6,738 bases of DNA from Chlamydiota bacterium (GTDB lineage: Bacteria > Auribacterota > JACPWU01), in NCBI GenBank assembly GCA_016196885.1, contig JACPWU010000066.1, forward strand, positions 1 to 6,738. Reading direction: 5' to 3'. Positions 2-6,738 of the stretch are shown here, piece by piece. The notes beneath the pieces were generated by a model that worked only from the letters and a program-made list of their open reading frames with translations, was not told the origin of the DNA and ran no database searches. Every line of letters begins with the position of its first letter. Positions within the stretch are counted from its first letter, which is position 1. The position numbers and the translations under genes were made by a program.

Positions 2-418
2 GAGGAGATGCCTATTTTTATTCATCAGGTTGTTCCAATTGTCCAGGTTCGGCCTGATGATTATGTTTTTTCGCTCAATGAAGAGACGGGGAAAATTGAG
101 CTGCACAGGATTATGGGGCTGATGGACATGGGGGTTAAGCCCGTGTTTCGGCTCACCACCGCCAGTGGAAGAAGTATTCGGACAACGGCGAATCATCCGT
201 ATTTAAAGAGAATCATGGATCATGGACAAGAAAAGGATCATGGATCATGGATGATGGATGATAGAAAAGACAAAAACACTTCAAATCCACCCTCCACGAT
301 CCAAGATCCATCATCCGTTTTATCCACTCCACCCTCCACGATCTATCATCCATTATCCGCTTCTCATTGGACCCCCGTGAGTCGGCTTCATATTGGAGAT
401 AAGATTGCGGTGCCAAAA
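2..418 (+). other. Hint/intein N-terminal splicing lobe. The first residue and block A lie upstream of the window. The lobe carries a repeat insert at 212-364.
   Basis: Translation is ...DDYVFSLNEETGKIELHRIMGLMDMGVKPVFRLTTASGRSIRTTANHPYLKR[insert]HWTPVSRLHIGDKIAVPK. The block B TxxH (T 185-187, H 194-196) and the following W..V..L..GD.IAVP strand match canonical mini-inteins as I recall them (Ssp DnaB: GRTIKATANHRFLTIDGWKRLDEL..HIALPR). Spacing to block B implies that Cys/Ser1 lies about 10-15 codons upstream of position 1. Confidence 0.8.
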
Positions 419-3400
419 CTTGCTCGTCTAGATTTCTTCGAGTCTCTGGATCGCACGTTTAATGATGGCAAAGCTTACGAACAGTCTACTTCGGAGATAG
501 AGGTCTTCGAGCGCTTTTTTTGCTTCGGACGAAGTGAGCCATTTGTGTTTGACAGAGTAGGTGATGAGTCCAACAGTTCCATGGACCTCAATTCTCAATT
601 GCTTAGCGATAGTTCGAGCAGCGAGATCATCAGTGAGGAGGATCAAGGGTCTCTCTTCAAGAGCTATTGTCAAGCAGTCAGTTTCACCGCGATGAAGATG
701 ACCCTTTTCAAGGGCGGCTTCCAAGGTGTGTGGGACAGATTTAGGGGTGGAGACGATTGTTACATTGGCCCATTTTTCAATGACACGATGACTTTCACGA
801 GGAATGTGTCGAGCTGTTTCTTCGATGACACTCACTGGGATCATGATGTGAGAGAGGTGCTTCAGAAGGGACAAACGACCTATTTCTTCCAAATGGATCA
901 GTGGACCGGCGTCGACGACCCATCTATGCATTCAGACCCCACAAGACATCTTCTTGAACAGCCTGATCTTGTTTCTCAGCAAGTTGAACAAGTTCATGAC
1001 CCAGAAGGCGAATGGCTTTTCGGCGGGAGAGTCGCTTTGCAAGATAATGTTCAAGAACGGAATCTTGATAGAGCTTGGCCAAGCCCAACTCCAATGCCTC
1101 CGTTAGCACAGCCAATGGCGTTTCATGACGGAGCTTGGCCAATTCTTCTAGCTGGGCCGGTAGGGGCTGGGACATCATACGCATCTTCTCCTTTCATTGC
1201 TTTTACTGACTATACTTATAGCACATTGCCTGCATCACGGTCAAAGAGAGAACTTGATGTTAGGCGCTTATCTAAAGCCAACACAGACATCCTCTGGGAC
1301 CGTATTCAATCCATAGAATTGACTGGCTTCGAGAGGGTTTACGACATTGAAGTGGAAGGAACTCACAATTTTATTGGGAATGGAATTGTGGCGCATAATA
1401 CTTATATTACCTCTCTTTCCCCAATACATGCTGTGGGGCAAAGTGCTTCTCCCCCTTCTATAAAAGAAAACGAAAATTTGCGAGATGAAGAAGAGAAGGG
1501 CCAGGTCGCTGTTGAATATATACTGCTTTTACCTCTCCTGATTCCTCTTTTGGTGTTGGGGCTTCCTCTTTATATGGGGATTAGATTGTTTTGGTCCAGG
1601 CGTGTTCGTGTGCCTGCTCAATCATTATCTCCCTCTAATCTTAGGGCTTATCAAAATCTGCTCATCGAGATCGATCCGGAGAATGAATCACATTATGAAA
1701 CTTGTGCTGGGATGGCGCATGCTTTTGAAGCCTTGCCGGGTGGGACTCTAGCATGTGTACGTCAAACAGGCCGTCAGTTTTTCCTGGGACAATCGGGAAG
1801 AGTGATCATCAATCAAAATGAAGTTGTCGGTTTGAGCGTTTTGGCTCACGAATATGCCCATGCAGATCCCAGGGAACCCCTTCCAGCCTTTGTGACAGGC
1901 GGCTCCTTTGCTGAGCTTTTTGAATCTATTTATAGGCGCTTAATTGCAGATGAGGTTCAGGCGTTTGAGGCTGAGATTCTCTTTGCCAAAAAATTTAAAG
2001 AAAAAAGAAACCAGAGCCTGTGGGATTTGCCTTCTGAATCGGGTGTCAAGTCCATGATGGTCGGGCTTGAAGCTATTTATGATGAGCAAGGTCGCCAGGG
2101 GATTCAGACCTGGCTGGAAAGAGGTCATTATCTCACTTATAAGCTTCAAGCGCTCAAAATGGCGGCCTTGTTCAGGGCAGGTGCTTTAGATAAAGACATG
2201 ACCAACCTAGAGCCTTTGGGCCAAGGGGGCGAAAAAATAGAAAGGGATTTGATTGAAGAACTTTGGAATGCCCTTCGGCCTCAACTCACTCAAAATCCCT
2301 TGGGTGTTTTAAATCTGTCTCGTCAGCCAGGAATGAAAAGGGCCATCCGAAAATTTTGGGATGTTTCAAAAAGAACTGGGGCCCTAGAGCTAGAGGACAT
2401 TGATTTTTTGAGAAATGATTTTGACAAGGTTGTCACCTTTGTCGGGGTTTTGTTTGGGGAACCGGTTCCTGAAACGGAGAGCTCTTCAGAAAAAGTGGAC
2501 TCGGGTTCTCAACAAGTGATTCATCCCCTTTTTAATCAGCCTTCACAATCCTGGTATGAGTCCAGTCAGGGGACCTTGGATGAGACTCAAGCCGAAAATC
2601 ATCTGGCCCGTTGGCAGTTTTTGGCGCAGTATAAGATTTTGGCTTCTGTTTTAGATTCTGTAGGGGTGATGGAAGCCCTTTTGCCACTTGTCTCCTCACA
2701 GGATCAAAAGAGAATTTTGAGCGATCTCTATGAAAGGGTCCAGACAGAGCCTCTGGAATTGTATCACGTGGCTAAAATAGGTGCCTCTCATGGTTATTTA
2801 GAGGCGAGCCATGAATTGCTTGAGAGGGCCTTTCAGCATCCTGAGAATTTTCCGTTACGAGTTGGCGGTCGTTCTCTTTCTCATTTGCTGGAGTTGCTAG
2901 AGATTTTTGACCAAAGAAGAAATGATGAAGGCAGGAAGAGGGTGATCGCTCTTTTGACCCAATATGTCGAAAGAAGGGGTCTGGATGATTGGATTTATAC
3001 TTTCAGATATATATTACGGAGGCCTTTTAAAGAGAATGAGGTCGATGAATTAAGGGCCCATGGAAAGGAGGTCATGGATCATTCATGGATTGCAATGAAT
3101 CCAGAGCGCATTCATGAAATATTGGGATGGGAGCCGAAGGATCATTATCGAAATTTTCTGATTTCTGATGATTCCTTTAAACGTCTAGAATCCCTTGATT
3201 CTGCTCTTAAAAATTTAGAAGTTAAACCGTCCCTATCCTCAGCTTCTTCGCAAGCGGTCAGTGAATTAAGGGCTCGCCTCAAGGGTCATTTATCTCATTT
3301 GGCGATGGCCTCGAAAAGTGATTGGAATAAATTGAGTCAATCGGGTTTTGGCTCCCCCGATTTTTATCAGGGACTTCCTCCTCTTCAGGATTTGAAATTG

Positions 3401-6400
3401 GGTGAGGATCGTTTTTCAAATTATGTTCATAGTGAACTTACCATGGTAAGTCTTTCCTCGTCTCACCCGTATCTTGAAAATCTAAAGCATTTCTGCTCTT
3501 TTAAGGATGTTTTGAAATTTTTGAGTCAGTTAGATCCCTTGTTCTTTCACGCCCCTCTTTTTACTTGGGTGGGAGAGAATCTGGATCAATGGCCACAGTC
3601 TGATGCGGCTCGTTTGATTCAAGTGTGGGAACAATGGGTGAAAAGAGCTCATCGGCTGTCAGCGAGATTTCACTATCAGGGATATACGAAATTTTATGAT
3701 CAGCAGATGTTCCTCCAAGGACTTTCCTCTGCCTATCAAAGTCTTTCGTCTGCATCCTCTTTCTTACAATCCCCCGAGGGAATGCATTTACATTTGTCCC
3801 TGGCTGAAGGATGGCTTAAATCTTCGGATCCTCTTCTCAAAGCAAAAGCCGGGGCAATTTTGGAAGAGGTCCAGTCAAAATCTGCTGCCGCATTTTGGTC
3901 TCCCCGAGGTGATTACGACACTAACACTTATTTTTTCTCACAACATACAGGCTTTTGGATTGCAAAGGCCTGGCTATTAGATGGGATACAGGGATCTGGA
4001 GGATTAGTCGCTCTCAATAGGGCCTATGACATTCTCTCAAACCCCTCTCAAAGACTTCATACCGCCGCTCAAGTTTCAGAGTGGATTGAGCTTTTATTGG
4101 ATTTGGCTTTGGCATTTGAGCGGGAGGGGGATTTTCGTCAAAGAGCAGCCTGTGAGCAGGCGGCTTATAATTATGTTCAAGAGATGGATCGCTTGATGCG
4201 TTCGGAGGATTTTAGAGCAAGAGATTCCAGGTATAACAATAAACCCAAAAAGTCGGACGCCCTTTTACAGCATCTCCAAATGACTTATCAAAAAAGTCAG
4301 GCCGTTTACAGAACAAAGCTGGCCATTCAACAAAATTCGAGACAGGCTCTTACGACGGGACTAGCGCCCCAAGGTGAATTTAAAGATTACAGCTATCGCC
4401 AGTTCTTGGCCATGGCTAGAGAATTGTCTCAAGCCCATTGGAATCTAGAATTGATTCAGGTGCTTGAAAGAATGATTGTACAAGTCAGGGCAAGATCGGG
4501 CTTTGAAATCGAGGGAGAACAAAATATCGTAAGTTCGATTCAAACATTTTTTGAAGAGGAGAATTCTTTTGTCCAAGTCGTTTTGAATGCCTCACTCTCT
4601 CCATTAGAGAAAGATGATTGGATTTTACGATATGCTCAGGCCGTGATCGGCGAGGAAGAAAGCATTTTAGCCAAAGGAGACATCAGTTCTTTGGCGAGAG
4701 TAGCTCGTGGGTTTGAGCCTTTGTTAAAGGCGGTTCGGGATGGAAAATGTCCACGCTCAGAGGCTTTTTTACTCAAAAATTTGGCAGAGGCATTGGATGA
4801 CTTGAAAGCGACTTATCCCAACTTAGTTGAGGGTGGCGTTCAAGCCTTAGCCCCTTTGGTGAGGGGGCTTGAAGAATCTCATCCAGAGCTTTTGCAAAGC
4901 GGGAAAAGAGAGGCCTATCAGGCCTTGCTGCCCGAAAATCAAGCGCTTCGCCAGGCCCTGGATGTTTTATTTCCGGCCGAAGATGGATCTGAAATAACTC
5001 GTTTATCACAAAATCTTTATGAAGAGGCCATGGAGGCGCTTAAGTTAAAAATGCAGTTGGAGGGGTTTCATCAATCTAATATAAATATATCTTTCTACAC
5101 TCGTCTTTCCTTGGATGAGTTAACAGGGTTAAAGAGCTTTGCAGTTTTGAGGGGAAAGATGACCGCTTCAAGTGATGGGCCTCTCGACTCATTCCTAGAA
5201 AATCCTAAGAGGGTTCGTGAGGTCTTGATTGGAGAGCCTCCCGACTCCATGCGGGCCCAGGTCTTTTCTCCCCTTTTAAGGGAAATATTTTTGAAATCTG
5301 GAAGTCCTGAGGTTCGGGCCATGGCTGTTCAAGGCCTGATTGTAGCAGGCTATTTGGGAAGTTATGCAGAGCATCTCTTTAAAAAAAATACGGCCTCTCA
5401 GCAAAACCTCTATCGTATCTTGGAGGCCGTCGCCGGGGAATTTGCCTCTCCCATCCCCGATGAATTGTTTGCCTTGTATGATGAATCTTCTCCAGCGATT
5501 CCGGAGTCATCTTTAAAAAATCTAAAATTCATTGAATACATTCGTTATTACAACAAATCAAGTAAGCCCTTACTTATACATGTCGATTCCCTAGCTCCCA
5601 CCATTCAGGATCCCCAGGCCGAACTTCTCATTCTAACGGTTTTTTCTCATTATAATGAAAGTTGGCTACAGGATTATACCCAAGACATTGTAGATGCCTC
5701 CAAAACCTTAAAAACGCGTCTCAGGGTTAAAATGTTTTTGGAGACGACGACGCTTCCCAAACCTTTACAGGATTTGCCCGAGACCCTGAAATTTGTTTTT
5801 GCCATTTTCTTGTTTCAAAATCCGGATATCCTCTCCCGATTCAATGCCTATTGCCGCGAAAATTCCAAGCTTAGCCAAGGCGATTTATTGTGTGCATTCT
5901 TTAGAATGGCCCATGCCGAAAAACTCGCTCAAGCGCTCGCCAACTGGCCCGGACTGCTTCCTCCTCCTCTCCAAGAGGCTCTGGCCCAAACGCAGCAGGA
6001 CAATGAGCCCATTTCAGAATTGGAATTCTTAATGGATTTAAACGAGGCGCTCGGAGGAGACTATCGGGACCCTTTCAGTGAAATTGACTGGTCCAGCCGC
6101 AAGGTGGGGTCGGTGGCGGAGGTGGTCCGGGCGAAACGCAAGGACACTGATAAATGGGTCGCGATTAAATTAATTCCCTCAAGGAGGATGAAAAGGATGG
6201 AGCGGCATCTTGAGGGAATGGAAAAACTCTTTGAAGTCTTGTCCCTTTACAAAGACGAGAAATTTAGAGGCGTAGATCCCGCTCTCTTTGGAAAGGAATA
6301 TATCCGGAGCTATCGCCAAGAATTGGATTTAAGAAATGAGGCGAAAAATGTAAGTGTGATGCAGCCTGTTTTTCAAAGAATAGGTCAAGTGAGAATGCCA

Positions 6401-6738
6401 AAATATCAAAGTCAATACACGCGGCCTCGGCTTTTGGTGATGAGCTGGGAGGAGGGGACGCCTCTCAAGGCTCTTGCCCCTGATGAAGTGAAAAAGGCCG
6501 TTGAGGCCTTGAGCCGGCTCGTGATAGACGGCATTTTTCAAGAAGGGGAGATTTTGGATGATCTTCACAGCGATAATATCCGTTGGGATACAAAAGGGCA
6601 AAAACTGATTGTCTGGGACTTTGGACGCCTAAGCACGATTACAGAATTCGATCGGGATATTCTTCTGGATTATCTATCAGCCATTTACCAGAGGGATGCG
6701 AATGGGATAATTCAGGCCCTCCAAAAAATGGCGGATCC
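2..6738 (+). CDS. Giant multidomain protein, internal fragment partial at both ends. Order: Hint/intein domain, linker, TM helix, HExxH module, long helical region, ABC1/UbiB-type kinase domain.
   Basis: Hand translation of frame 2 shows no TAA, TAG or TGA across all 2245 codons. Recognisable motifs at 167-205, 1286-1399, 1847-1861 and 5918-6625 all lie in this one frame. The sequence looks protein-like throughout. No start or stop lies in the window, which explains why the ORF track omits it. Confidence 0.85.
212..364. repeat. Composite repeat and dyad-symmetry insert inside the intein N-lobe.
   Basis: Four tandem heptamers, (GGATCAT)x2 then (GGATGAT)x2, occupy 235-262, with a partial copy at 212-226. 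A perfect 16-nt direct repeat TCCACCCTCCACGATC occurs at 286-301 and 328-343; these head an imperfect 42-nt tandem duplication (286-327 and 328-369). Inverted matches: 249-259 GGATGATGGAT pairs with 306-316 ATCCATCATCC (11/11), and 249-264 pairs with 343-358 (15/16). Confidence 0.85.
428..931 (-). CDS. PIN-domain toxin, DUF3368/COG2405-like (VapC-like ribonuclease).
   Basis: The 167-aa ORF has an N-terminal VVDAGPLIHLEEIGRLSLLKHL..IPVSVIEE and a C-terminal GETDCLTIALEE..LILLTDDLAARTIAKQLRIEVHGTVGLI. These match the conserved acidic and PIN-like motifs of DUF3368 proteins as I remember them. Its ATG overlaps the stop of the upstream small ORF (ATGCATAG at 931-924), the usual type II TA arrangement. 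Confidence 0.8.
   Translation of the reverse strand: MHRWVVDAGPLIHLEEIGRLSLLKHLSHIMIPVSVIEETARHIPRESHRVIEKWANVTIVSTPKSVPHTLEAALEKGHLHRGETDCLTIALEERPLILLTDDLAARTIAKQLRIEVHGTVGLITYSVKHKWLTSSEAKKALEDLYLRSRLFVSFAIIKRAIQRLEEI
924..1184 (-). CDS. Putative antitoxin, UPF0175/COG2886-like small DNA-binding protein.
   Basis: This 86-aa ORF lies immediately upstream of the PIN gene and overlaps it by 8 nt. The segment LEHYLAKRLSRRKAIRLLG..LVQLAE resembles the UPF0175 helix-turn-helix core that typically pairs with DUF3368. AGGAG at 1192-1188 is only 3 nt from the first ATG, so the in-frame ATGs at 1178 or 1175 (9-12 nt spacing) may be the real start. Confidence 0.65.
   Translation of the reverse strand: MRMMSQPLPAQLEELAKLRHETPLAVLTEALELGLAKLYQDSVLEHYLAKRLSRRKAIRLLGHELVQLAEKQDQAVQEDVLWGLNA
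1188..1192 (-). promoter_or_regulatory. Shine-Dalgarno sequence for the antitoxin.
   Basis: The minus strand reads gaaAGGAGaagATGcgtATGATG. Confidence 0.5.
1215..1244 (-). promoter_or_regulatory. Sigma70-like promoter for the TA operon, embedded antisense in the intein ORF.
   Basis: The minus strand reads TTGACC (1244-1239), an 18-nt spacer ending in TGc (extended -10, T1223 G1222), then TATAAG (1220-1215). This places it about 30 nt upstream of the antitoxin ATG. A GCAATG direct repeat at 1229-1224 and 1200-1195 flanks the -10 and could be an operator. Confidence 0.5.
1262..1399 (+). other. Hint/intein C-terminal splicing lobe (blocks F and G), ending in His-Asn. The +1 residue is Thr at 1400-1402.
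   Basis: Translation is RRLSKANTDILWDRIQSIELTGFERVYDIEVEGTHNFIGNGIVAHN|T. This matches canonical block F/G (Ssp DnaB: DIYWDSIVSITETGVEEVFDLTVPGPHNFVANDIIVHN|S) and lies in the same frame as the N-lobe. Confidence 0.85.
1517..1582 (+). other. Predicted single transmembrane helix.
   Basis: The hydrophobic stretch YILLLPLLIPLLVLGLPLYMGI is preceded by an acidic linker (ENENLRDEEEKGQ) and followed by the basic cluster RLFWSRRVR, consistent with the positive-inside rule. Confidence 0.6.
1847..1861 (+). other. HExxH (HEYAH) zinc-metallopeptidase-like motif.
   Basis: The context is GRVIINQNEVVGLSVLAHEYAHADP, with acidic residues downstream (FAELFES, IADEVQAFEAE) that could supply a third metal ligand. 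It loosely resembles minimal metallopeptidase modules such as DUF4157. This is a motif-level call only. Confidence 0.35.
5918..6738 (+). other. ABC1/UbiB/ADCK-type atypical protein kinase domain, continuing past the window end.
   Basis: EKLAQALANWPGLLPPPLQEALAQTQQDNEPI aligns with the KLGQ.LS.R.DLLP....EL..LQD.VPP lead-in. SEIDWSSRKVGSVAEVVRAKRKDTDKWVAIKLIP matches PiAsASiaQVHrA....VAvKV. The family signature ELDLRNEAKN lies at 6320-6349. LLVMSWEEGTPL, DLHSDNI (6563-6580) and WDFG (6614-6625) are also present. Confidence 0.8.

Follow-up and report, generated by a model that had tools for sequence, protein, structure and literature searches.

An antisense toxin-antitoxin-type operon in the intein loop of a giant ABC1-family kinase gene

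The stretch of DNA analyzed here (the window) is the entire 6738-bp contig JACPWU010000066.1 of a Chlamydiae metagenome-assembled genome (MAG; GCA_016196885.1). Frame 2 of its plus strand belongs to a single, real gene of giant size that encodes a membrane-anchored kinase and has an intein within it; beneath the intein, on the minus strand, lie two further genes, one for a PIN-domain toxin-type protein and one for a small antitoxin-like partner, preceded by a putative promoter of their own. Judging from codon usage, recoding of this toxin-antitoxin (TA) operon has kept the intein frame open. The antisense operon is the main feature of the window and was missed by an earlier reading made from the letters and an open reading frame (ORF) list (the sequence-only reading). 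We hold the interpretation as a whole, an intein-interrupted giant kinase gene with a recoded antisense TA operon in the intein loop, to be probable; we are highly confident of its structural claims, and regard its functional logic, in which cassette and intein benefit each other, as evenly balanced. Loci and proteins compared with the window are cited by number (L and P), and a slash within a motif marks a splice junction.

The intein and the gene pair antisense to it

Frame +2 runs through 2245 sense codons (2-6738) without a single stop, against 155, 117, 147, 84 and 98 stops in the remaining five frames. From the base composition the stop probability is 0.056 per codon, giving a log10 probability of -56.3 for a stop-free frame, and the longest ORF outside frame +2 has 167 amino acids (aa). 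The sequence-only reading had described this frame, and its continuation beyond both ends, correctly, and was also right that the ORF track misses it, since the lister omits ORFs that run off both ends. The deposited record holds one partial coding sequence (CDS; P0001, 'MAG: hypothetical protein HYZ67_10065, partial [Chlamydiae bacterium]') identical to the frame-2 protein, and a raw run assembled independently by Logan (L089, SRR12113417) matches the sense frame exactly, and open, from aa 61 in block B to aa 439 (nucleotides (nt) ~182-1318).

The beginning of the frame matches Pfam Intein_splicing (E 1.8e-17) and NCBIfam TIGR01443 intein_Cterm (E 4.7e-10; 39.4 bits vs a cut-off of 15.6), and among solved structures the DnaB mini-inteins from Nostoc and Synechocystis come closest (4o1r, E 1.9e-13; 1mi8, E 1.2e-11), aligned over aa 19-69 and aa 418-466. 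The TxxH of block B is T62-A-N-H65, aligned to block B of both structures, and blocks F and G (VYDIEVEGTHNFIGNGIVAHN) end in ...GIVAHN466, with His465-Asn466 at nt 1394-1399, followed by T467 as Thr+1. By its motifs the Hint domain is a canonical class-1, DnaB-type intein. The C-extein that follows it is colinear with the intein-less proteins P0133 and P0134, so that the intein is an in-frame insertion in a protein that also exists without it. The sequence-only reading had taken an autoprocessing Hint domain to be a part of the protein; the Hint fold stands, but the similarity to DnaB mini-inteins (E 2e-13), the TxxH and the VAHN/T junction identify a true intein that is expected to be spliced out. 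Since inteins are removed after translation, it would be no working domain of the mature protein.

Canonical bifunctional inteins carry a LAGLIDADG or HNH endonuclease between blocks B and F, and the window's intein resembles these, and the DnaB inteins of Synechocystis and Nostoc, in its splicing blocks (4o1r, TxxH, HN, +1 Thr) and in having extra DNA in the corresponding loop; like them it is in frame and is expected to leave the protein once translated. Unlike theirs, its cargo is a two-gene operon on the opposite strand with its own putative promoter, the sense loop being a domain-less mirror peptide; the host site also differs, being a non-conserved linker of a non-essential-looking giant protein and not a conserved site of a replication enzyme. 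The sense translation of the insert has no match in Pfam or NCBIfam and is 28% identical to the same segment of the P0027 intein, and the chance of its 287 codons being open is about 1e-7. A degenerate endonuclease on the sense strand was considered and rejected, as the conservation is accounted for by the antisense genes.

The three longest minus-strand ORFs of the window all lie beneath the intein. Homologs of the PIN protein (n=20, 159-175 aa) all match PF11848/DUF3368, with E down to 3e-50, and the PIN catalytic acids D7, E83, D101 and D102 are invariant. On the window's own protein the Pfam models DUF3368 and PIN_4 fall below gathering score; PADLOC PDC-S70 matches it over its full length (six models, best E 1.9e-23), and the family profile matches 2lcq (E 8e-4), a chain deposited as 'Putative toxin VapC6' / endonuclease Nob1. 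The AlphaFold (AF2) model has a pLDDT of 89.4 and a pTM of 0.85, and in a Foldseek search against the PDB its top matches are PIN domains, including eight of eight at E<=0.001 (VapC4, Nmd4, SMG6, HARP, Nob1). COG2405/DUF3368 belongs to the VapC group of PIN domains, predicted to be TA toxins with UPF0175 as exclusive partner, in a study that does not mention inteins (Matelska et al. 2017, PMC5499597). No PIN-family relative was found in viral contigs, and PHROGs returned nothing informative. The PDC-S70 match suggests that the cassette may be an anti-phage (abortive-infection) module, and not an addiction module alone.

The second gene, of 86 aa, overlaps the PIN start by 8 nt, and a partner ORF is found directly upstream of the PIN gene in most PIN-family loci. 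In the alignment of this partner family, RHH_1 is matched by 5 of 18 members (best E 3.4e-5) and UPF0175 by 2 of 18. Ahead of the pair the sequence has the layout TTGACC-N18-TGCTATAAG-AGGAG-ATG, which is consensus-level evidence for a promoter and ribosome-binding site (RBS). This putative promoter is wholly within the sense ORF, where the -10 box, read in reverse complement, gives the peptide D-Y-T-Y-S-T. When the upstream regions of ten embedded cassettes were aligned, TTGAC(A/C) was present in nine, GGAG followed by ATG in all, and TGnGCTATA(A/G)T in six (the window, L081, L086-L088, and L004, where it reads GTGGTATAC), while L032 and L002 have weaker variants. The antisense promoter was not reported by a consensus promoter scanner that demands T at position 6 of the -10 box.

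Because of the homologs, the invariant acids, the PDC-S70 match, the PIN fold, the conserved partner, the 8-nt overlap and the conserved upstream region, we conclude that 428-931 and 924-1184 are two real genes on the minus strand inside the intein. The sequence-only reading had reckoned with the segments of its giant frame being translated as separate smaller genes; two smaller genes do exist, but on the opposite strand and inside the intein. The composition of the plus strand is of interest here as well. Codon-position GC content follows the usual coding pattern, with position 1 highest, from nt ~900 on, and is inverted (position 3 above position 1) over nt 1-900, the intein/TA segment, which is consistent with minus-strand genes dominating the composition there. 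An Rfam scan of the window found no RNA family.

Codon constraint and recurrence of the arrangement

The PIN gene is codon-aligned with the intein frame on the other strand, and in this geometry sense stops correspond to the PIN codons TTA, CTA and TCA. None of the three occurs among the 23 Leu and 11 Ser codons of the window's PIN gene, while the host uses them for 25% of its Leu and 16% of its Ser codons. The PIN and antitoxin proteins were re-encoded at random with host codon usage and the sense stops counted. For the window's PIN protein this gave a mean of 7.6 sense stops and a probability of 2.5e-4 of an open frame; for the antitoxin, which lies in a different phase, the probability was 0.046, and for both together 5e-5. 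The replicate with L002 gave 11.8 expected stops for PIN, with none of 20000 simulations open (<5e-5), and 0.007 for the antitoxin.

The same avoidance is found beyond these two loci. The embedded PIN genes (window, L002, L003, L004, L031, L032 and L091-L093) contain no TTA, CTA or TCA at GC contents of 0.38-0.65. Among 83 PIN-family loci, the six closest PIN genes have zero such codons at locus GC down to 0.38, and the frames open opposite them extend over 342-1764 codons; some 60 free-standing relatives, from haloarchaea, Chloroflexota and others, have 1-13 of them and closed opposite frames, with one exception of high GC3. Both strands are constrained, and the codon avoidance is replicated in diverged loci. 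The operon genes of the window thus appear, from codon choice, to be recoded for an open intein frame.

The PIN cassette is found inside an intein in at least six other diverged loci, in addition to the roughly 60 free-standing relatives that are not in inteins. As tblastn with the window's intein halves missed the more diverged inteins of L031 and L086, the presence of inteins elsewhere was judged by motifs and Pfam. L002, from another MAG, has a complete ORF of 1744 aa with a complete intein (Cys1, TxxH, HN/T) and the same antisense pair. The most complete case is L092, in which 'RTTATHPYL...GDRIAIP' is followed by the cassette and then by VYDIEVEGTHNFLANGILAHN and, after the junction, TS, so that both intein halves are present in one open frame of 481 codons over the whole contig. 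In L031 ('NHPYL...GWKKVIDLKIGEEIAA'), L091 and L093, too, the strand opposite the cassette has intein blocks on either side of it, and in L086 a PF14890 gene abuts the antisense pair. The PIN identities among the intein-embedded loci are only 40-53%, and the arrangement must therefore be old and maintained.

Two further observations concern individual loci. L089 and L091 come from one run (Logan SRR12113417), L091 being a second, diverged intein-embedded cassette on a contig of 65% GC, with a PIN protein 52% identical; different organisms of one sample therefore carry the arrangement. In L031 (2-1027, minus strand) the TA cassette is flanked in the sense ORF by 'LESWKAGKLESGW', immediately ahead of it, and 'VELESWRAGE', behind it; these may form a direct repeat and might mark the insertion boundaries.

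The comparison with free-standing relatives also bears on what the cassette does. The window's pair shares with type II TA modules of the COG2405 (DUF3368 PIN)/UPF0175 kind, and with PDC-S70, the PIN fold and catalytic acids, a small overlapping partner upstream, an apparent promoter of its own and the full-length PDC-S70 match. It differs in that the free-standing relatives lie between genes and use TTA, CTA and TCA freely, while the window's subclade lies wholly inside an opposite-strand gene and has none of those codons. It could be argued that the PIN protein is instead a reverse-encoded mobility nuclease, a new type of homing endonuclease with the small ORF as its regulator: the PIN gene sits exactly in the endonuclease slot, PIN-like domains include DNA nucleases (PMC5499597), and the intein family has spread to many unrelated host sites with most copies lacking a recognizable endonuclease. 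However, COG2405/DUF3368 falls in the VapC group as a predicted TA toxin with an exclusive small partner (PMC5499597), the relatives outside inteins have the same partner, and the family is catalogued as a candidate defence system. Given these free-standing TA relatives we judge a homing nuclease the less likely function, and would give it little credence. On balance we take the cassette to be a selfish or defence module that sits within the intein.

The host protein, the intein family and other features

The sequence-only reading gave the order of the giant protein as Hint domain, acidic linker, transmembrane (TM) helix, HExxH module, long middle and ABC1 kinase, and this order was borne out, with the intein at aa 1-466, the acidic stretch ENENLRDEEEK at aa 489-499, the TM helix at aa 502-531 followed by RLFWSRRVRV, the HExxH at aa 616 and the ABC1 domain at aa 1974-2240 (Table 1). 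The HEYAH motif is the only HExxH in the 2245 aa, and H616, E617, H620 and E651 are invariant in all eight family members. The AF2 model of the module (pLDDT 85.2) consists of three strands, the HExxH helix and the Glu helix, and it has no significant match among PDB folds. The middle region has no match in Pfam, NCBIfam or the PDB.

The kinase domain scores 102.1 bits on PF03109 (gathering cut-off 22.9), and in the alignment to M. tuberculosis 5yjz the motifs VAIK, ELDLRNEAKN, D-L-H-S-D-N and DFG are all kept, by which it appears catalytically intact. It is not a UbiB ortholog, as it is far below the equivalog cut-offs (TIGR01982, 84 bits vs 487.55; PRK04750, 71.3 vs 667). Like the ABC1/UbiB/ADCK kinases (PF03109; M. 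tuberculosis 5yjz, 7cy2) it is far above threshold and conserves the ATP-binding and catalytic motifs; unlike them, it is the C-terminal domain of a protein of ~1800-2800 aa with a gluzincin-like module, in a family with 8 cluster representatives of 1.84 billion.

A word-indexed homology search with aa 468-1975 returned the protein itself alone, and it was a full HMMER scan of the 1.84 billion cluster representatives that gave seven relatives and hence the 8-member family. P0133 (1859 aa) runs colinearly with aa 543-2244 of the window protein (32% identity in 1738 aligned columns), and P0134 (2815 aa) with aa 543-2245 (28% in 1821 columns); P0135-P0139 (1619-2000 aa) share the N-terminal HExxH module and, where the C-terminus is present, the kinase. 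A C-terminal ABC1 domain is present in all four members scanned (P0133-P0136). The named members are MAG proteins of Bdellovibrio sp., 'Deltaproteobacteria' and unclassified bacteria, some of them annotated 'AarF/ABC1/UbiB kinase family protein'. The intein-less P0133 has trpA, NUDIX and PALP genes as neighbors and extends 115 aa beyond its ABC1 domain, so that about 115 aa of the window protein would be missing at the C-terminus. P0134 has an N-terminal extension of ~1030 aa, fused without an intein, which makes a large N-extein plausible for the window protein. On sequence grounds the C-extein thus seems to belong to a rare giant-protein family with an HExxH...E module, more than 1100 aa of uncharacterized sequence and a C-terminal ABC1 kinase. 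The sequence-only reading had not recognized the architecture as a described one; it is indeed not found in the searchable literature, but the combination of HExxH module, middle and ABC1 domain is not unique to the window, being colinear at 28-32% over ~1700 aa with P0133 and P0134.

The sequence-only reading had also seen a resemblance to effectors or polymorphic toxins, that is, a membrane-anchored modular polypeptide in which Hint autoprocessing, peptidase and kinase act together. Hint domains do precede toxin tips in polymorphic toxins, many hosts of the window's intein family also score on Pretoxin-HINT PF07591, the protein is giant with a TM segment and an HExxH, and the ORF opposite the related cassette of L081 has a sub-threshold ART-PolyVal match (E 0.005). 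However, the window's Hint domain finds its closest similarity in splicing DnaB inteins and is followed by Thr at +1, PF07591 is absent from the Pfam families reported for the window at E<=1, and what the Hint domain precedes is a conserved protein of 1779 aa, found elsewhere without Hint, and not a small variable toxin tip. The gene neighborhood of P0133 is a housekeeping one, and no PADLOC family matches the extein. The contig, which ends within the giant gene, shows neither an immunity nor a secretion gene. The resemblance is left unsupported, and we consider joint action of the three parts in an effector highly improbable. The bacterial intein-like (BIL) domains typically lack a +1 nucleophile and endonuclease-size inserts. 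With BIL and pretoxin-HINT domains of polymorphic toxins the window shares a Hint fold in a variable region of a very large non-housekeeping protein, but it keeps HN/T and is closest to true inteins.

The intein family is a prolific one, whose hosts are giant unrelated proteins of CPR/Patescibacteria, Omnitrophota, DPANN and others. Among 112 matches to the full protein, 144 C-terminal junctions of the type VYDIEVEGTHNF..NGI.AHN/T were counted, often several per protein, of which 96 read 'HN/TY'. Conservation extends to the N-side flanks, where 93 of 117 junctions have Gly at -2. The similarity to the hosts P0024 and P0035 runs ~16 residues beyond the splice site into the C-extein ('TYITSLSPIHAVGQSAS', window 1400-1450). 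From these flanks, the intein may travel with, or target, a short conserved flank. Within the P0002-P0112 set, the CPR hosts have the intein inside a repeated motif ('GIGTTxP..LHVEGQ', the intein, then 'TYISGNVGIGTT'), many intein copies have a poly-Arg/Lys tract directly after 'CVTGDT', and many host proteins also bear NYN (PIN-like) domains.

One more feature of the intein is a nest of repeats between block B and the insert, forming an imperfect hairpin whose 35-nt arms are 77% complementary. Read in the sense frame it is a low-complexity intein loop (aa 68-121), and on the minus strand it lies 65 nt downstream of the PIN stop; its RNA fold has z scores of -2.2 (minus strand) and -2.5 (plus strand). 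L001 (13750-13895) has a hairpin at the same place in its intein with a different repeat unit, and the L002 intein is without the segment. The hairpin could be an operon terminator or 3' stabilizer, or an in-frame insertion resembling a miniature inverted-repeat transposable element (MITE). A minus-strand ORF at 213-416 was dropped as a gene, having no family match and lying in the hairpin repeats.

Table 1. Features of the window and the basis of each (nt positions unless marked aa; a dot denotes no strand)
Feature	Position	Strand	Basis
Partial CDS, precursor of the intein-containing giant ABC1-family protein, 2245 codons, open at both ends	2-6738	+	Stop-free frame; identity with P0001
Intein/Hint region overall	aa 1-466	+	Pfam, NCBIfam and PDB matches
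Intein N-terminal splicing region, aa 1-138	2-415	+	4o1r/1mi8 alignment of aa 19-69; 67% identity to P0016 aa 1182-1317
Repeat nest (inverted and direct), imperfect ~150-nt hairpin	203-364	.	Arms 231-265/286-320; direct repeats 281-320/323-362
Intein insert (aa 139-424) where an endonuclease usually sits; in translation the 'mirror' of the antisense operon	416-1273	+	Stop-free; no domain match
Toxin-type gene for a 167-aa PIN-domain protein (COG2405/DUF3368; PADLOC PDC-S70), antisense to the intein frame and codon-aligned with it	428-931	-	Homologs, catalytic acids, fold
86-aa antitoxin-like gene; ATG at 1184, more likely 1178/1175	924-1184	-	Partner conserved upstream of the PIN gene
Putative promoter and RBS of the antisense operon: -35 TTGACC 1244-1239, 18-nt spacer, extended -10 TGC-TATAAG 1223-1215, AGGAG 1192-1188	1188-1244	-	Read by eye; alignment
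Intein C-terminal splicing region, aa 425-466, blocks F and G	1274-1399	+	TIGR01443; PDB mini-inteins, aa 418-466
Thr467, +1 nucleophile, first C-extein residue	1400-1402	+	Translation; HN/TY common in the intein family
Predicted single TM helix, aa 502-531	1505-1594	+	Kyte-Doolittle maximum 2.45 (19-aa window), the one strong peak in 2245 aa
Conserved gluzincin-like module, aa 543-830; HEYAH aa 616-620 (nt 1847-1861), candidate third ligand Glu651 (nt 1952-1954)	1628-2491	+	Family alignment; AF2
~1140 aa with no known domain, Leu/Ala/Glu/Ser-rich	2492-5920	+	Colinear with P0133, P0134
ABC1/UbiB-type atypical kinase domain, aa 1974-2240	5921-6721	+	PF03109

Weight of the evidence and meaning

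A number of observations weigh against our interpretation and are best taken together. The window starts inside the intein, so that block A and Cys1, about the first 30 intein residues, lie upstream of nt 1 and the N-extein is unseen; in homologs Cys1 is present, as in P0016 ('GR/CVTADTML', ~30 aa farther upstream) and P0027 ('GL/CLTPDSL'). The window's own 86-aa protein has no Pfam match, making the antitoxin assignment weak for this member, and the peptidase assignment of the gluzincin-like module has a motif and a modeled topology as its basis. Cassettes of the same subclade lie beneath opposite open frames in L004 (2-5152, Omnitrophota), L081 (2-2068) and L088 (1-1770), frames of 1717, 689 and 590 codons that each take up the whole contig and have no recognizable intein blocks and no Pfam intein match. 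The adapted partner may thus be the cassette and not the intein, with direct embedding in giant ORFs. Finally, the sequence closest to the N-terminal region of the window's intein (67% identity), at 13400-15400 of L001 in the Chlamydiae MAG GCA_016178055.1, has a sense frame broken by a stop and a frame change: one ORF with the N-extein and the N-terminal intein half ends ~100 aa into the loop, and a second, in another frame, has the C-terminal half and a Methyltransf_28 extein. The L001 loop has different minus-strand ORFs, the sole supported one being a truncated PIN fragment (E 1.5e-3). A RelE/ParE toxin called by eye in the intein slot of L001 (85-aa ORF) was not confirmed by Pfam. Because the L001 frame is broken, inteins of this type can decay or act as split or cleavage-only elements.

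It can be hypothesized from L001 that the window's intein, too, does not splice in cis but is cleavage-only, de facto split or decaying, giving separate N- and C-terminal proteins, with the open insert frame a relic. P0133 starts ~60 residues before the conserved region, near the product that C-terminal cleavage at Asn466 would give, and an unstructured insert of 286 aa together with a 54-aa loop might impair folding of the HINT domain. Yet all the visible splicing motifs of the window are intact, codon avoidance keeps the frame open in at least nine diverged loci, as would not be expected of a relic, and P0134 shows that a large N-terminal extension is natural in this family. A cleavage-only element would moreover still need read-through and would differ in its final chemistry alone. 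Between the end of the intein and the TM helix there is no in-frame start with a Shine-Dalgarno sequence, and the C-extein therefore appears to need read-through of the intein. We consider the loss of cis-splicing unlikely.

The position of the contig end raises a different doubt, namely that the assembly is a chimera joined at a multi-copy intein, so that the intein and the kinase gene are not linked. Inteins of the family are highly uniform and a single protein often has several of them, the first nucleotide of the contig already belongs to the intein, as would be expected of an assembler that breaks at a repeat, and the independent assembly L089 stops short of the intein/extein junction at nt 1400. 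Against this, the reading frame runs on through the junction, the sequence that follows HN ('TYITSLSP...') agrees with the flank shared with P0024 and P0035, and the C-extein has no start codon of its own. The presence of the antisense TA pair in an intein is in any case independent of this junction, being seen in at least six other contigs from different assemblies. A chimera, then, has very little probability.

The layout of L001 also recalls an older finding: Dassa and colleagues reportedly described in 2009 'fractured genes', in which split inteins are separated by a free-standing endonuclease gene. The arrangement in the window resembles these in placing an independently expressed selfish gene between intein halves, as does the broken L001. 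It differs in that the host frame is continuous, and in that the cargo is antisense, fully overlaps a translated intein, and is a TA pair and not an endonuclease.

With the intein-interrupted kinase gene and its recoded antisense operon as the preferred reading, the following sequence of events may be envisioned. The plus strand would encode the precursor of a giant single-pass membrane-anchored protein, interrupted by the intein ~35 residues before the TM helix. The ribosome would read ~286 codons of meaningless mirror peptide plus the 54-aa low-complexity loop, around which the HINT domain would fold as it does around an endonuclease domain and then splice; from its intact motifs, the intein would remove itself after translation, joining the unseen N-extein to Thr467, and loop and mirror peptide would be discarded with it. 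The mature TM-anchored protein would have its HExxH, middle and kinase parts on the Arg-rich, presumably cytoplasmic, side of the membrane. Convergently, the antisense operon would be transcribed against the host gene from its own sigma-70-type promoter, making a stable PIN nuclease and a labile DNA-binding, ribbon-helix-helix (RHH)-like antitoxin. The cassette could gain a safe harbor in the intein loop, inside a gene and without harm to the mature protein. The intein could gain an addiction or abortive-infection/phage-defence function that replaces the endonuclease and penalizes intein loss.

Each part of this system is of a known kind, be it the intein, the PIN TA pair of COG2405 or the ABC1 kinase. 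As far as we can tell, three things are new: the presence of a TA operon, with a promoter of its own, on the antisense strand of an intein's endonuclease loop; the recoding of that operon for an open host frame with a complete antisense overlap of more than 250 codons conserved across lineages; and the family of the host protein, giant ABC1 kinases that include a gluzincin-like module. No prior description of an antisense TA operon inside an intein was found in the searchable literature, whose coverage leaves out most subscription journals. We lean somewhat toward the view that these cassettes represent an unrecognized class of nested selfish element, in which TA or abortive-infection cassettes lie antisense in inteins, and possibly in giant ORFs, with the three stop-making codons purged, and replace the homing endonuclease as the function that maintains the intein.

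The reality of opposite-strand overlapping frames in bacteria is still debated. If our interpretation is true, the window would be among the cleanest natural bacterial cases of a long (>250 codons), fully overlapping antisense gene pair, in which one frame is constrained as a protein and the other merely to stay open, its product being spliced away. It would offer an opposite-strand overlap that is statistically clean and evolutionarily replicated, and whose tolerance is transparent because the sense peptide is discarded. Annotation of these loci has been one-stranded, in that NCBI called the giant CDS while the Logan and JGI callers on short contigs called the TA genes, and nested genes are therefore systematically missed. 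The host protein, for its part, would define a rare and uncharacterized family in which giant ABC1 kinases carry a gluzincin-like module. The persistence of inteins is generally put down to a homing endonuclease or to a degenerate mini-intein state. A reverse-encoded TA or defence operon within the intein would be a third way of persisting, and the intein loop would serve as a protein-level safe harbor for foreign DNA.

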